64,000 nucleotides of DNA from Escherichia phage UP19, in the sequence record OX638288. The stretch is one strand, 5' to 3'. This document shows, one piece after another, positions 3,877 through 61,164 of this stretch. The position numbers and the translations under genes are program-made. The notes below the pieces were generated by a model, which made no database searches, was not told where the DNA came from, and saw only the letters and a program-made list of their open reading frames with translations. The stretch's first letter is position 1; each line of letters opens with the position of its first letter.

Positions 3877-5436
3877 TTAAATTCCTTTAACGTAGACGCG
3901 TCTAAAGTAACCATTCAGACCAAGGCTATTAACAATGTCCGGCATGCCGTTCTGAATGCGCTTGGTCGGAGCCTGAGCAGCAGGGTCAGCAAACGGGTTA
4001 ATACCGATACCGTAACGAGTTTTGAAGCCCATTACCGGCTGGAAGTTCTTCGGATCGGAACCGCGCAGTGGGGTCAGTGCAACGTAAGGAGCGTAGTAGA
4101 TACCTGCGTCCATTTCGTTGGAACCTTTATAACCGATAGTGAAGTAATCAGCACGGGCATACTGGTCGATGTAAACGCGATATTTACCACCAAGAACACC
4201 GGCAAATACTGCTTTAGTGGTGTCAACGTTGAAACCTTGACCCAGACCCTGAGCGGCATAACTTACAGAAGTATCAACTGCAGCCAGTACGTTAACTACG
4301 TTACGGGAAGCGATGATGAAGTTACCAGCACCACGACCGGTCTGACGAGCGATTTCGGCTGCTTCTTTATCAATCTGGAACAGAAGGGCTTTAAAGCTCT
4401 CACCGGCCCAACGAGCACCACGGATATCAATCGGGTCCTGGAAGTCAAACACACCAGCTTTAGCGCCAACGGTGTTGGTCATACCGGATTTACCAACCTG
4501 TGCAGAGTAGTTAATCCAATCGATAACTTCACGGTTGATTTCCAGCATAATTTCGGTAGCCAGAATACCACTCAATTCAGCATCTGCATCCATACCGTGT
4601 ACTGCACGAAGGTCCTGTGCCAGTTCGATGGAGTAGCTTGCTTTCAGCTGACGGGATTTAGCTTCGATAACTTGTTTATCGATACGGAAGCCCATTTCGT
4701 TCCACGGGTTATCAGTAGAACCGTTGAAGCCTTCCTGAAGTTCAGCGATAGAAGTAGCCATACCTTCAGCCAATTCAGCCAGCTGACCAGCTTCTAACAG
4801 AGCGGTTACGGCAACATCCAGTTTAGCGGCATCGGTAGCAGCGGCATCAACGGTTACGGCTTCAACAGCCTGGAAGTGTGCAGAACCGGTAGCTTCGAAG
4901 AAGTGAGAATAAATTTTACCAACTTCCAGAACTTTACCTGCAGCCAGTGCTTCAAAAGTCTGAGCAGCACCCTGACCAGAGAACATAGCATTCGGAGCAT
5001 ACATCGGGTGGAAAGCTTCTTTAGCACCAGCAGCGATAGGGTCTTTACCGTATACTGCACGCAGTGCAAATACCTGGCCGGTAGGGTTATTCAGAGGCTG
5101 AACACCACAAATATCAAAAGCAATCAGATGAGGAATAGCACGACGAACCATACCCATTACTGCCGGCCCAATCTGAGTTACAGCACCAGAGGTCTGGCCA
5201 GCTGCGATATTGGTAGCATCATAACCGTGGTCACCACCGATTTCAGCTTCAGTCAGGAAAGAACCAAATGCTTCGGAGATTTTTTCGTCACGATATTCAG
5301 GAGCGGTCAGAATATCTTGTTCCTGGTTTTCAAAGATTTTAGCGATGATAGCTTGTTTAGAAGCACCAACGATTTCAGGAAGAGCTTCGTTTTCCAGCAG
5401 AGCGGACCATTTTTGAACTAATGCATTCTTTTTCAT
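3877..5436 (-). CDS. 23: gp23 major capsid protein
   Basis: 519 aa; ..LPEIVGASKQAIIAKIFENQE.. and gp23/gp24-family blocks; position after 22. Confidence 0.92.
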   Translation of the reverse strand: MKKNALVQKWSALLENEALPEIVGASKQAIIAKIFENQEQDILTAPEYRDEKISEAFGSFLTEAEIGGDHGYDATNIAAGQTSGAVTQIGPAVMGMVRRAIPHLIAFDICGVQPLNNPTGQVFALRAVYGKDPIAAGAKEAFHPMYAPNAMFSGQGAAQTFEALAAGKVLEVGKIYSHFFEATGSAHFQAVEAVTVDAAATDAAKLDVAVTALLEAGQLAELAEGMATSIAELQEGFNGSTDNPWNEMGFRIDKQVIEAKSRQLKASYSIELAQDLRAVHGMDADAELSGILATEIMLEINREVIDWINYSAQVGKSGMTNTVGAKAGVFDFQDPIDIRGARWAGESFKALLFQIDKEAAEIARQTGRGAGNFIIASRNVVNVLAAVDTSVSYAAQGLGQGFNVDTTKAVFAGVLGGKYRVYIDQYARADYFTIGYKGSNEMDAGIYYAPYVALTPLRGSDPKNFQPVMGFKTRYGIGINPFADPAAQAPTKRIQNGMPDIVNSLGLNGYFRRVYVKGI

Positions 5437-48447: not shown

Positions 48448-48680
48448 GTATTGCGATTTATATTAAATCCGAGTCATGCGATTCTTATCTGTATTCCTAT
48501 GACACCGGAACATCAGAAGAGAAAATCAAAGAAGATTTAGAAACCGACTTGGATATGTTCCGTCCTATTTCTGACTATATGGTCCAAGTGTCTGATAGTG
48601 AAAGCCCGTCATTAGAAAATAGACTTGAATTTTTAATGAGCGATATTTTTAACCAATCATGGAAACGTGATGATGAGTAA
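48444..48680 (+). CDS. Hypothetical acidic small protein
   Basis: 78 aa; overlaps the upstream stop. Confidence 0.4.
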   Translation: MSIAIYIKSESCDSYLYSYDTGTSEEKIKEDLETDLDMFRPISDYMVQVSDSESPSLENRLEFLMSDIFNQSWKRDDE

Positions 48681-49122
48681 GAAAGTTAAAGAACTATCAG
48701 CCGGTATTTTGTTCATGACTGTCGATAAAGAATTGGTTATGGGTCGTGTAACAGGTTCTCGTAATCCAGAGAATATGCGTCATAAATGGGACATTCCTAA
48801 AGGCCATGTCGAACCAGGTGAAGAGCCTATTCAAGCTGCTATGCGTGAAACCGAAGAAGAGATTGGATTCACTGCATATGACCCTGCGTTCCTGAAAGAC
48901 CTAGGTGAGTTCAAATATTCTAGCAATAAGAATCTACATCTGTTCTTATATACTGTGCCTGTCGAACACGAGCAGTTCAAGGATTGCAAATGTACCGCTT
49001 ATCATACGTTCCCTGACGGCCGTACGATTCCTGAATTCGATGCCTTTGCCTTGATTAAACGTCCGCAATGGGAATATGTCATGGGCCCGTCGATGTTTAA
49101 GGTTTTAGATTCGCTCTTTTGA
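48670..49122 (+). CDS. nudE: Nudix hydrolase (T4 NudE / e.1-like)
   Basis: Nudix box GHVEPGEEPIQAAMRETEEEIG; immediately upstream of e as in T4; first ATG at 48670. Confidence 0.8.
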   Translation: MMSKKVKELSAGILFMTVDKELVMGRVTGSRNPENMRHKWDIPKGHVEPGEEPIQAAMRETEEEIGFTAYDPAFLKDLGEFKYSSNKNLHLFLYTVPVEHEQFKDCKCTAYHTFPDGRTIPEFDAFALIKRPQWEYVMGPSMFKVLDSLF

Positions 49123-49130
49123 TATAAATA
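49123..49130 (+). promoter_or_regulatory. Late promoter TATAAATA for lysozyme e, inside an SD-sequestering hairpin
   Basis: TATAAATA followed by TACCTCCT..AGGAGGTA inverted repeat that pairs the e SD. Confidence 0.6.
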
Positions 49131-49152
49131 CCTCCTATAATCAGGAGGTATT

Positions 49153-49647
49153 ATGGATATTTTTGATATGTTACGTCAAGACGAAGGTCTTGATTTAAAT
49201 CTTTATAAAGACACTGAAGGTTATTGGACTATTGGTATTGGCCAGTTAGTTACCAAGAACCCATCTAAAGATGTTGCTCGTGCCGAACTTGACAAACTTA
49301 TGGGTCGGGTTTGCAATGGACGTATTACTATGGCTGAAGCTGAACAACTCTTTAACCGTTCAGTGGAAAATGCTCGTAGAGCTATAATGCGTAATCCTAA
49401 ATTGAAACCGGTTTATGATGTGCTGGACGAAGTTCGTCGTTGCGCGCTGATTAATATGGTCTTTCAAATGGGTGAAGCTGGTGTCGCTGGATTTACCAAC
49501 TCTCTGCGTATGCTCCAGCAGAAACGTTGGGATGATGCCGCAGTTAACCTGGTGCAGTCCCGTTGGTATAAGCAGACTCCGAATCGCGCTAAGCGAGTTA
49601 TCTCTACATTTAAAACAGGAACTTGGAAAGCATATGAAAACCTATAA
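49153..49647 (+). CDS. e: Endolysin (T4 lysozyme)
   Basis: 164 aa; catalytic E11, D20 and T26 conserved; roughly 70% identity by eye to T4 lysozyme as remembered. Confidence 0.93.
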
Positions 49648-49903
49648 AGAATTTTTGGCCGAATCTCAACTGAACGAAAACACTGACCTAGACCGTATGA
49701 CATTCCTGGCTAAGAAAGGCGGCTTCGAATTTAAAGCCATTAAGAAAGTAAATGGGTATTCTTTTGAAGTCGGTGAATATACCTTTGGTAACAAGGGTGA
49801 TGGCCAGTGGCAAATTGTTAAAAACGGCAAAGAAGTAGACTACCTTTTCGGTAAGAAACTTAGTGACATTGCTAAAATAATGGGCGAATATTCTAAAAAA
49901 TAG
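49634..49903 (+). CDS. Internal-protein-like gene ([10 protein letters not shown]|S)
   Basis: Capsid-targeting leader; ATG 49634 overlaps the 3' end of e. Confidence 0.6.
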
Positions 49904-49931
49904 TTTACATCTCCTGTATGCATGATATTAT
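49903..49931 (+). promoter_or_regulatory. Early promoter module; spacer CTCCTGTA pairs with the denV SD TACAGGAG
   Basis: GTTTAC 49903-49908; TATTATAGACCTATCAA. Confidence 0.6.
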
Positions 49932-49959
49932 AGACCTATCAATTACAGGAGATTACAAA

Positions 49960-50376
49960 ATGACTCGTATCAACCTTACCTTAGTATCTGAATTGGCTGA
50001 CCAACACTTAATGGCTGAATACCGTGAATTACCACGTGTTTTCGGTGCAGTTCGTAAGCATGTTGCTAACGGTAAACGTGTTCGTGATTTTAAAATCAGC
50101 CCTACTTTTATCCTTGGTACAGGCCATGTTACATTCTTTTATGATAAGCTTGAATTTTTACGTAAGCGACAAATTGAGCTTATAGCCGAATGTTTAAAAC
50201 GTGGATTCAATATCAAGGATACTACTGTCCAAGACATTTCCGATATTCCACAGGAATTCCGTGGTGATTATATTCCTCACGAAGCTTCTATCGCTATTTC
50301 ACAAGCCCGTTTGGATGAAAAAATTGCACAGCGTCCTACCTGGTACAAATATTATGGTAAGGCTATTTACGCTTAA
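49960..50376 (+). CDS. denV: Endonuclease V (pyrimidine-dimer DNA glycosylase)
   Basis: [31 protein letters not shown].. appears near-identical to T4 DenV as remembered. Confidence 0.92.
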
Positions 50377-50418
50377 TTAAATCCGTGATAGAATACTTCT
50401 ATCAACTTAAGGAATAAT

Positions 50419-50718
50419 ATGAAAACTTATCAAGAATTTATTACAGAAGCCAAAGCTCCTAAAGCATTCCAAATAGGTGTCCAAGGCACCTTAGACCAAG
50501 AATATGTTGATGCTATTGTAGCAAGCCTCGGTAAACAGGGCGTACAAGTGGATTTGGTTGATTTTACTAAAGGTAATACTTTTAATATTGTTACATCTAA
50601 AGGCTCTTTAGCTAAAGTTAAAAAGGCCTTTGGTGTAGCCCAAGCATACGAAATCGACCACTCTGAATTAGAAAATAAAGGTCGCCAGAATACAATTAAA
50701 GGTTCTGGTTCTTTCTAA
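50419..50718 (+). CDS. Internal-protein-like gene (MKTYQEFITE|AK)
   Basis: Capsid-targeting leader; 99 aa against 100 for T4 IPII. Confidence 0.6.
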   Translation: MKTYQEFITEAKAPKAFQIGVQGTLDQEYVDAIVASLGKQGVQVDLVDFTKGNTFNIVTSKGSLAKVKKAFGVAQAYEIDHSELENKGRQNTIKGSGSF

Positions 50719-50878
50719 TAAAGGCAAGCCGACCCTCTCCTCATGAACGTCGCATCCTCTGAGTGATGGACCTTTCCCTACCTGTAATAAGGTCGAGCCC
50801 AAGTGCGGTAAAGGGTTTACATACGGATACATGGATGAATTATGTGCCAAGGAACGGCCCCACAACTAAGAGACCACT

Positions 50879-51406
50879 ATGAAATTTTTAACTCCCATTT
50901 ATCTAACCTTAATGCACGCCTTCGCTGAACGCGCCATTGAACGTTTAGACTCAGACCAATATACCTGGTACGAACCCACTTCAAGAATGCAAGAGTTTGG
51001 TACTCTTCGACTTGACGGCGGGCGTCAAACAGGTAAAACAAGTGCCCTTGCCCAGTTCGCAGCTGATTGGGTTTCCAAGGGTAATGATGTGATTGTTATG
51101 TCAAGTTCTTCGCATCGCTCACGAGAAATCTGTAATATAATAAAAAGGGTTTCTAAGGCCCAACCACACCTTCAAGTAGAAGGTCCTGGGTTTGTTGTAT
51201 ATGATACCATGCGTTCATTTTTAGACGAAGATAACTTCCATAAGTATCGTGGTCTATCAGTTACTCGATTATTGATTATTATCGAAGAGCCAATGCGCCT
51301 TCCATCGATGGATAAGTTCTATGAAGCTTACCAGGTAATGATTAACAAATTTATGTGCCAGGGTTCTAAACCTCTGCCACTGTTCTTTGTGATAGGAATG
51401 CAATGA
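50879..51406 (+). CDS. Small P-loop NTPase-like protein
   Basis: Walker A-like GGRQTGKTS and Walker B-like LLIIIEE. Confidence 0.45.
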   Translation: MKFLTPIYLTLMHAFAERAIERLDSDQYTWYEPTSRMQEFGTLRLDGGRQTGKTSALAQFAADWVSKGNDVIVMSSSSHRSREICNIIKRVSKAQPHLQVEGPGFVVYDTMRSFLDEDNFHKYRGLSVTRLLIIIEEPMRLPSMDKFYEAYQVMINKFMCQGSKPLPLFFVIGMQ

Positions 51407-52190: not shown

Positions 52191-52219
52191 GTTTACATCT
52201 CCTGTAGACGTGGTACTAT
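52191..52219 (+). promoter_or_regulatory. Early promoter module; spacer CTCCTGTAG pairs with the regB SD CTACAGGAG
   Basis: GTTTAC 52191-52196; TACTATAGACCTATCAA. Confidence 0.65.
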
Positions 52220-52247
52220 AGACCTATCAACTACAGGAGATTACAAA

Positions 52248-52706
52248 ATGTCAGAAATTAATTCAGAAGTATTCATCCGCCGCAACAAATTACGTCGACA
52301 GTTCGAAACCGAATTTCGTGAACTTAACGCGTCCATCAAAAAAGCCGCCATTAAGAGTGGTGTCCCAGCTTTCTTTATTAAGTACTCTAATCACTTGTTG
52401 GACCGTGCTATCCAACGTGAAATTGACGAAAAATATGTTTTCTCTTTGTTCAAGAAGCTCCACAATCATGTTAAAGAAATCCATGAATTTTTAATCCAGG
52501 AGCCTCTTCCTGACGTAGAATCTGAAATTGTCCCGGGTAAAGTGTATCGACCACTGCGTCTCGAGATTACCGATAAAACCTTATGGTTAGGTATGACCGT
52601 AGATCGTAAACATCCTGATAAAGGATATTCATTAAAATGCCGTATGGCATTTGTTAACTCTAAACGTTTAGAAGGTAAAACCAGCACTAAAGTAATCTAT
52701 CTTTAA
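52248..52706 (+). CDS. regB: RegB sequence-specific endoribonuclease
   Basis: ..EVFIRRNKLRR.FE.EFR.. and ..HLLDRAIQREIDE.YVF..LF.. resemble T4 RegB; about 152 aa. Confidence 0.85.
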   Translation: MSEINSEVFIRRNKLRRQFETEFRELNASIKKAAIKSGVPAFFIKYSNHLLDRAIQREIDEKYVFSLFKKLHNHVKEIHEFLIQEPLPDVESEIVPGKVYRPLRLEITDKTLWLGMTVDRKHPDKGYSLKCRMAFVNSKRLEGKTSTKVIYL

Positions 52707-52718
52707 TAATGAGGTCTC

Positions 52719-53258
52719 ATGAAAAAAGTATTAGCCACTTTACTATTGACAGTTAGTATGTCTGCCTATAGCGTAGAGCCTACTTTCAGTAATGAACAAC
52801 TCGATAATTTACATTATGCGTATGCTTTCGGTGAACAATACCAAAAGTCGGGAAAGTTCAAAGAAAACCCTAATCAAAAAGGATTAGGATATATAATGGC
52901 CGGATTATTATGGCAGGAATCATCTGCTGGAATTAATCAAGGTTTAAATAAAGATAAGCACCATGCTTATGGCATGTTCCAAAATTACTTGCCTACGTTA
53001 AGAAGTCGTGTTCAACAGGTAGGTTGGAAGATGTCAGACAAAGAAATAATTCGTATGGTCCAAAAACGACAGAACAGTGCCTCTTGGGCCTACATTGAAC
53101 TGTCTTATTGGATTGATGTTCACAAAGGTGACCTGAGAAAAGCGATTGCTTCTTATAATGCGGGCTGGAATGTCAAAGCAGGCAGTAAATATGCTTCCGA
53201 AGTTCTAGAAAAGGCCAATTACCTAAAATCTAAAAAGATGTTTGAGGCGGTATATTAA
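52719..53258 (+). CDS. Secreted lytic transglycosylase-like protein
   Basis: Signal peptide; SLT motifs ES (WQESSAG), GMFQ and YNAG. Confidence 0.6.
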   Translation: MKKVLATLLLTVSMSAYSVEPTFSNEQLDNLHYAYAFGEQYQKSGKFKENPNQKGLGYIMAGLLWQESSAGINQGLNKDKHHAYGMFQNYLPTLRSRVQQVGWKMSDKEIIRMVQKRQNSASWAYIELSYWIDVHKGDLRKAIASYNAGWNVKAGSKYASEVLEKANYLKSKKMFEAVY

Positions 53259-53615
53259 ATGATTAAACAGATGACTATAGCGCTTATGTTTATTGCTCCG
53301 GGAGTATTAGCATCACAGGTTGATGATACAAATAATTCAATTGTCGAGTATGCCACCCGTACAGCAAAAGATTATTGTCATCCGAGTAATACTGAATGTG
53401 TTATTGAATTCAGTTCAAAAATAACAGCTGCTTTTAAAGATGGACAGAACGACGTCGAGCATCGCCGAATGAAAGAGAAAACTCTTTCTAAAAGATACGA
53501 GCAACGTCTAAACGTTACTGAATGTGTTCCATCTGATAAAAAGTACAAAGAAATGTGCGCGTCTATGGTAGACAGACTCGTTGACTCTTACAACCGAGGG
53601 CTAAACTCTAAATGA
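53259..53615 (+). CDS. Secreted small protein
   Basis: Signal peptide MIKQMTIALMFIAPGVLASQ; 118 aa. Confidence 0.45.
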   Translation: MIKQMTIALMFIAPGVLASQVDDTNNSIVEYATRTAKDYCHPSNTECVIEFSSKITAAFKDGQNDVEHRRMKEKTLSKRYEQRLNVTECVPSDKKYKEMCASMVDRLVDSYNRGLNSK

Positions 53616-61135: not shown

Positions 61136-61164
61136 GTTTACATCTCCAGTAGAAATGATACTAT
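61136..61164 (+). promoter_or_regulatory. Early promoter module; spacer CTCCAGTAG pairs with the SD CTACTGGAG
   Basis: GTTTAC 61136-61141; TACTATAGACCTATCAA. Confidence 0.65.

Follow-up and report, generated by a model that had tools for sequence, protein, structure and literature searches.

Why should a single gene of a T4-type phage encode almost exactly the T4 protein when the genes around it are clearly diverged from those of T4? This question is raised by denV, the gene for endonuclease V (a pyrimidine-dimer DNA glycosylase/AP lyase), which lies at 49960..50376 on the + strand of a 64,000-nt stretch of Escherichia phage UP19 (record OX638288; one strand). This whole stretch is referred to here as the window, and positions are given in its coordinates unless another genome is named. 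A preliminary description of the window had explained the resemblance by a recent horizontal replacement of the denV segment, possibly assisted by conserved promoter modules on either side. Both the gene and the phenomenon are of known kinds, namely a standard denV and a known hyperplastic locus; the question is which of the two phages carries the foreign copy, how old the exchange is, and by what route it may have occurred.

The denV Locus in the Window

When the 44-56 kb region of the window was searched against 50,697 phage records, Dhakaviruses (dhaeg, CLB_P2, MN04, IME341, and others) gave the best matches, at 92-96% identity, so the window comes from a JS98-like T4-type phage and not from T4. 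The genes are arranged in the order nudE, e, an ORF of 89 aa with a leader, denV, an Ip7-like ORF of 99 aa, a GC-rich spacer, vs.8, vs.7, regB, vs.1, and vs. The left backbone gene is the lysozyme gene e (49153-49647, +), with nudE (48667-49122) on its 5' side, and the right backbone gene is the homologue of vs.8 (50879..51406, +). Between them, denV is enclosed by two variable internal-protein (IP) cassettes.

The left cassette is the 89-aa IP-like ORF (49634..49903, +), whose ATG overlaps the last codons of e and whose product starts with a leader of the capsid-targeting type, MKTYKEF (leader repeat D5). Its best DNA match among the 50,697 phage records is 74%, to phages of Klebsiella, Kosakonia, Enterobacter, Serratia, and Edwardsiella, in which it always lies right after e; it was found neither in the eight Dhakavirus loci compared nor in any other Dhakavirus record. 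The right cassette is the 99-aa Ip7-like IP gene (50419..50718, +), which corresponds to JS98 orf112 and has a homologue annotated as ip7 in the VR7 record. This gene shows 96-100% nucleotide identity to JS98 and 94-95% to IME08/AnYang, is not present in dhaeg, and is found on the other side of denV in VR5. Neither of these IP-like ORFs beside denV matched a Pfam family.

Endonuclease V Encoded by the Window

The denV ORF comprises 138 codons, and its product matches PF03013 (Pyr_excise) with 54.6 bits (cut-off 23, E = 1.4e-14). Comparison with T4 endonuclease V (PDB 2END, chain A) shows identity at 137 of 138 residues (E = 2e-90), which bears out the initial impression that the two proteins are nearly identical. 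The sole amino acid change is at residue 54, which is Thr54 in the window and Ala54 in T4. Ala54 is private to T4, since Thr or Ser occupies this position in every other allele examined, and the window protein corresponds to the clade consensus. Thr2, Arg3, Arg22, Glu23, Arg26, Arg117, and Lys121 are all kept in window DenV and in all 15 aligned alleles. In T4 endonuclease V, we take the N-terminal Thr2 amine and Glu23 to be catalytic, and Arg3, Arg22, Arg26, Arg117, and Lys121 to be basic, DNA-binding residues. Near-identity to the characterised enzyme suggests that window DenV would have glycosylase/AP-lyase activity on cyclobutane dimers.

The window gene thus shares with T4 endonuclease V (2END, 1VAS; PF03013) its length of 138 aa, the catalytic and DNA-binding residues that were checked, and an early-promoter context, but it differs in Thr54 and in 37 synonymous changes. 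The neighbours also differ: two IP cassettes enclose denV in the window, whereas the T4 gene comes after ipIII-ipII and borders directly on the GC-rich element.

Similarity to T4 Along the Window

At the DNA level, denV of the window and denV of T4 (NC_000866) agree at 379/417 positions (about 90.9%), and 37 of the 38 differences are synonymous. When the whole window was compared with the 45-125 kb region of T4 by blastn, all long segments showed 64-78% identity except for 49894-50376, which showed 90.3% over 484 nt; this segment consists of denV and 66 nt upstream, and it ends at the stop codon. Identity along the region, which is the comparison that had been proposed beforehand, is therefore not uniform. 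The alignable rest of the 64-kb window has 64-82% identity to T4.

Gene by gene, in a set of 55 orthologous ORF pairs of the window and T4, no other gene is as extreme as denV on any measure. Its amino acid identity to T4 is 99.3% (next best, 92.8%) and its nucleotide identity 90.8% (next best, 82.0%); its pS is 0.388, against a next-lowest value of 0.486 and a median of 0.714, and its pN of 0.009 is the lowest of all, followed by 0.047. The lysozyme gene e, which had been judged by eye to differ from T4 at roughly 30% of positions, does so to about this extent (73.8% amino acid and 71.5% nucleotide identity). The flanking leader-bearing genes are diverged, as had also been stated: in both ORFs beside denV, the match to T4 is limited to the 42-nt leader, which in the 99-aa IP gene is 88% identical to the leaders of T4 ipII and ipIII.

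T4 as the Outlier

The same comparisons, made from the side of T4, give a different picture of where the anomaly lies. For nudE, e, vs.8, and vs.7, T4 has 92-100% identity to RB68, wV7, UFV13, T2, and T6 in most 100-nt intervals, but for denV its nucleotide identity is 71% to RB68 and wV7 and 80% to UFV13. The T4 allele is found at 100% only in T4-type isolates (T4, T4T, RB55, and RB59). The next closest allele is that of VR5 (95.0%), followed by about 50 Dhakavirus-type records (89-93%), with the other Tequatroviruses at 80% or less. The near-identity of the window denV to that of T4 therefore has its origin in T4, the only sequenced Tequatrovirus with an allele of the Dhakavirus class.

Trees (neighbour-joining, 500 bootstraps) of denV and of its flanks are incongruent. 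In the denV tree, which rests on 417 nt, T4 and VR5 group together with 92.6% bootstrap support and are nested in the Dhakavirus clade (100%), where EcWhh-1, JS98, and dhaeg, and not T4, are the partners of the window. In the flank tree (e, regB, and vs.1), T4 groups with RB68 and wV7 (100%), and VR5 is basal in a Dhakavirus clade that likewise has 100% support. The breakpoint is sharp. VR5 and RB68 can be told apart at 162 sites across the T4 promoter and denV; T4 matches VR5 at 137 of these and RB68 at 15. Downstream of T4 denV, 60 of the 67 informative sites in T4 match RB68. The switch to Tequatrovirus-like sequence falls between T4 positions 64942 and 64934, which is no more than 8 bp from the denV stop and coincides with the left edge of the GC-rich element.

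On the strength of these sequence comparisons, the window gene is native, and the most likely history is that a promoter-plus-denV cassette entered the T4 lineage, either from a VR5-like Dhakavirus or out of a common pool of cassettes. This amounts to a correction of polarity, in that the textbook gene for T4 endonuclease V is an allele of the Dhakavirus type, carried by no other Tequatrovirus among the 50,697 phage records. No statement that T4 denV is JS98- or Dhakavirus-like was found in the literature.

We infer the direction of transfer by parsimony and from an outgroup root whose branch is long, with only 417 nt to go on. This root, together with the several ways in which IP/denV cassettes move (UFV13 with HX01, and T4 ipII with HX01), would speak for one of two other histories, in which the T4 lineage had the allele first and passed it on a single time to the Dhakavirus ancestor, or in which T4 and VR5 both drew from an unsampled third lineage. 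However, among hundreds of Tequatrovirus records the allele is confined to T4-type isolates, and the divergence of VR5 denV from its own genus matches that of the VR5 flanking genes. Moreover, if the Dhakavirus ancestor had been the recipient, the denV distance between T4 and VR5 (5%) would not be expected to be smaller than the distance from VR5 to other Dhakaviruses (9-10%). We therefore regard these histories as quite unlikely, and import into the T4 lineage as the better reading.

denV Is Native to the Dhakaviruses

Within its own genus, the window denV does not stand out. It has 90-96% nucleotide identity to about 50 other Dhakavirus-type records, and a comparison by gene with JS98, dhaeg, VR5, IME08, and AnYang gives 90-95% for denV, 92-94% for nudE, and 88-92% for e. 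The 100-nt sliding profile of the window against Dhakaviruses has no step at denV. Since denV diverges within the genus to the same degree as its flanks, the window copy is native and was not replaced. Taken jointly with import into T4, it is probable that the window carries an ordinary, vertically inherited, and functional endonuclease V gene of a Dhakavirus. It resembles the denV genes of this genus (JS98, JS10, IME08, VR5, dhaeg, EcWhh-1, and others) in allele class (90-96% nucleotide and 97-99% amino acid identity), in its position between e and vs.8, and in its promoter module. It differs from them in that no record is identical to the window gene, the best being EcWhh-1 at 95.9%, and in that the adjoining IP cassettes change from phage to phage.

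No other segment of the 64 kb reaches about 90% identity to T4, and promoter modules flank denV, which might suggest that the window phage has recently exchanged its own denV for a copy derived from T4. However, the window gene is closer to Dhakaviruses (up to 95.9%) than to T4 (90.9%) and groups with EcWhh-1, JS98, and dhaeg; the allele is present in all of the approximately 50 Dhakavirus-type records, with a divergence equal to that of the flanks; a pS of 0.39 is not that of a recent event; and the single amino acid difference is the T4-private Ala54. The window as recipient is thus very improbable, and it was rejected on the congruence of denV with its own genus. Of the horizontal replacement that had been proposed at the outset, one part stands, as denV has a history unlike that of its neighbours in the window-T4 comparison. 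The other part does not, as the replaced segment is not in the window, where denV has 90-95% nucleotide identity to Dhakaviruses, just as its flanks do.

Constraint on DenV and the Age of the Exchange

The near-identity of the DenV protein is partly plain purifying selection. DenV hardly varies from genus to genus over its first approximately 100 residues, and the Mosigvirus-type alleles of UFV13 and HX01 have 77-79% nucleotide identity to the window yet 92% protein identity. This strong constraint, with the lowest pN of 55 genes, would allow one to argue that there was no transfer and that codon bias and selection produced the DNA identity, but such an explanation is barely credible when T4 denV has 71-80% nucleotide identity to its own genus against 92-100% for its flanks, when window denV has 71-79% to UFV13, HX01, and RB68, and when the non-coding promoter 5' of denV is raised in identity as well, and it was rejected on the incongruent trees (92.6-100% bootstrap) and the sharp breakpoint within 8 bp.

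The claim that the exchange was recent is not upheld. The window and T4 differ at 37 synonymous positions, with a pS of 0.39 and a Jukes-Cantor dS of about 0.55, which equals the deepest divergence inside Dhakavirus (dS of 0.60 between the window and VR5). Between T4 and VR5, dS is 0.22. These values indicate an exchange that is much younger than the genus split, for which synonymous sites are saturated, but that is not recent. Highly expressed genes such as gp23 (0.49) have a pS only moderately above that of denV, so synonymous divergence by itself is a weak argument. Once the exchange had taken place, purifying selection, very strong at a pN of 0.009, would have held the protein while synonymous sites drifted to a DNA difference of about 9%.

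Promoter Modules at the Boundaries

An early-promoter module is located directly 5' of denV at 49896..49959 (+). It consists of GTTTACA, 16 nt, TATTAT with an upstream TG, and a Shine-Dalgarno sequence AGGAG; TATTAT is followed by AGACCTATCAA..ACAGGAG and the ATG. With 10/12 matches, it is the best promoter-like site in 49100-51000, and it belongs to repeat family D1. The module is repeated: the window has nine copies of the approximately 60-nt form GTTTAC-N17-TAYTATAGACCTATCA, which all lie on the + strand between 37.7 and 61.2 kb (37700, 41855, 46881, 49903, 52191, 56314, 59425, 59737, and 61136), when 0 are expected by chance. Several copies carry an inverted repeat that links the promoter spacer to the Shine-Dalgarno region; in the denV copy it is CTCCTGTA / TACAGGAG and brackets the -10 region. 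In the copy at 61136 this inverted repeat is retained by a double change (CTCCAGTA / TACTGGAG), and the other copies retain it only in part. A second, weaker promoter-like module (TTTACG, 17 nt, TAGAAT, and then the Shine-Dalgarno sequence of the next IP gene) lies over the denV stop at 50361..50418 (+).

The 90% tract common to the window and T4 begins at 49894, at the promoter module, and ends at the denV stop; the blastn similarity to T4 stops at 50376, within the weaker module. The region upstream of denV was aligned with T4, VR5, JS98, and dhaeg, and the non-coding promoter of the window also has high identity to that of T4. The suggestion that promoter modules on both sides assisted the exchange is therefore right as to position, as a conserved module bounds the left end and a weaker one overlaps the stop. 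The modules may have served as crossover sites, and they could also mark the boundaries just by being conserved ends of transcription units. The T4 promoter region is itself a fine-scale mosaic, with a core like that of VR5/JS98 and a spacer before the ATG like that of IME08/AnYang, so more than one event would be needed.

Cassette Shuffling between e and vs.8

The IP genes that adjoin denV vary among the window, JS98, VR5, dhaeg, IME08, and AnYang, and the corresponding interval of T4 is a patchwork. T4 e is Tequatrovirus-like up to its own stop. Beyond it, T4 ipIII (T4 positions 65834-66415) is 91-100% identical per 100 nt to ip3 of the Dhakavirus VR5, and T4 ipII (65416-65718) is 93-97% identical to a gene of the Mosigvirus HX01 and 90-95% identical to ipII of AnYang/IME08, whereas the T4 backbone has only 55-85% identity to VR5, HX01, AnYang, and IME08. 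Together with the profile of denV, these profiles indicate that everything between e and vs.8 in T4 is closest to non-Tequatrovirus genomes or to scattered genera.

The denV locus has other variants within the Tequatroviruses. The denV of UFV13 groups with that of the Mosigvirus HX01 with 100% bootstrap support (extracted loci, UFV13 4001-4414 and HX01 4001-4411), and by this placement it is a second inter-genus exchange at the denV locus. A third allele, which branches deeply, is found in RB68 and wV7. Searches by tblastn and blastn found no denV in the e-regB interval of T2 (AP018813, 58000-70000) or of T6 (AP018814, 58000-72000). The gene immediately after e is ip4-like in T2 and regB in T6, which lacks the whole denV-vs.3 block. 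T4 is reportedly more UV-resistant than T2 and T6, an observation said to go back to Streisinger in 1956 and Harm in 1963. The lack of denV at this locus in T2 and T6 fits this classical difference.

The most likely course of events is that, during a mixed infection, the T4 lineage took up the promoter-plus-denV cassette at the hyperplastic IP locus between e and vs.8. This locus is built of small cassettes, each headed by a conserved module of early promoter, Shine-Dalgarno sequence, and leader, and it ends at the GC-rich element. Such short conserved blocks would offer enough homology for the phage recombination machinery despite a backbone difference of 30-40%. Taking these blocks together with the variable IP genes and with the PeSL literature, we infer homologous recombination at the blocks during mixed infection.

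PeSL-mediated cassette shuffling has been described previously (Arbiol et al., 2010; PMC2839356), and early-promoter/stem-loop elements at two variable T-even IP loci were proposed as drivers of IP plasticity (Repoila et al., 1994, in the account given in PMC2839356). For PST/T4-type PeSL, the promoter consensus is TTTACW N17 TAYWAT (Comeau et al., 2014; PMC4122927). The window motif fits this consensus and is repeated in hyperplastic regions, as in the shuffling described in these two papers (PMC2839356 and PMC4122927). Likewise, a module with an inverted repeat precedes small, variable genes of the IP locus, and the cassettes differ between close relatives. There are also differences. The window-type cassette carries a known repair enzyme and not an ORFan, and the exchange crosses genera. 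In addition, the PeSL of RB49 and phi1 has a separate, GC-rich, terminator-like stem, whereas in the window the inverted repeat covers both the -10 region and the Shine-Dalgarno sequence. The locus provides a clean, base-pair-resolved case of inter-genus cassette exchange at short conserved regulatory modules, which could be used to test the PeSL model.

One might go further and regard the e-vs.8 interval as an integron-like cassette site common to T4-type genera, in which the modules and the GC-rich element would be dedicated recombination sites and not merely regulatory. This we consider doubtful. If true, the denV that makes T4 more UV-resistant than T2 and T6 would be an imported cassette from a VR5-like Dhakavirus.

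The GC-Rich Element and vs.8

The GC-rich non-coding element that forms the right-hand junction of the T4 mosaic is found in the window at 50735..50878 (+), directly 5' of vs.8. Its GC content is 50%, compared with 39.8% for the window. In T4, VR5, and dhaeg it lies immediately next to the denV stop. The core of the element, ACCTGTAATAAGGTCGAGCCCAAGTGCGGTAA, hardly varies among loci of Tequatrovirus, Dhakavirus, Mosigvirus, Gaprivervirus, and Kanagawavirus, although the genes around it are 40-70% identical. No meaningful Rfam match (E-value mode) or tRNA (ARAGORN) was found in the GC-rich region 50600-51000. RNAalifold analysis of nine copies of the element gave invariant pairs only, with no covariation, and this is evidence neither for nor against an RNA structure. 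The T4 counterpart of the element is annotated as the first approximately 35 codons of vs.8, which may be due to a mis-called start.

The vs.8 homologue of the window has 38-39% amino acid identity to T4 vs.8, and in Pfam it gave only sub-threshold AAA/NTPase hints. Its nucleotide identity is 93-97% to VR5 and dhaeg and 51% to JS98 and IME08. Dhakavirus vs.8 thus falls into two allele classes whose mutual nucleotide identity is only about 51%. The first class comprises the window, VR5, dhaeg, AnYang, EcWhh-1, and IME341, and it is 86.5% identical at the nucleotide level to that of the Gaprivervirus VR7. The second class comprises JS98 and IME08 (extracted loci L005, 4872-5468, and L007, 4921-5469), and it is about 72% identical to T4 vs.8. 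Further to the right, regB, vs.1, and vs (52200-53600) are 98-100% identical to those of JS98/dhaeg, compared with 91-97% for nudE, e, and denV (48700-50400), and this gap indicates mosaicism within Dhakavirus too.
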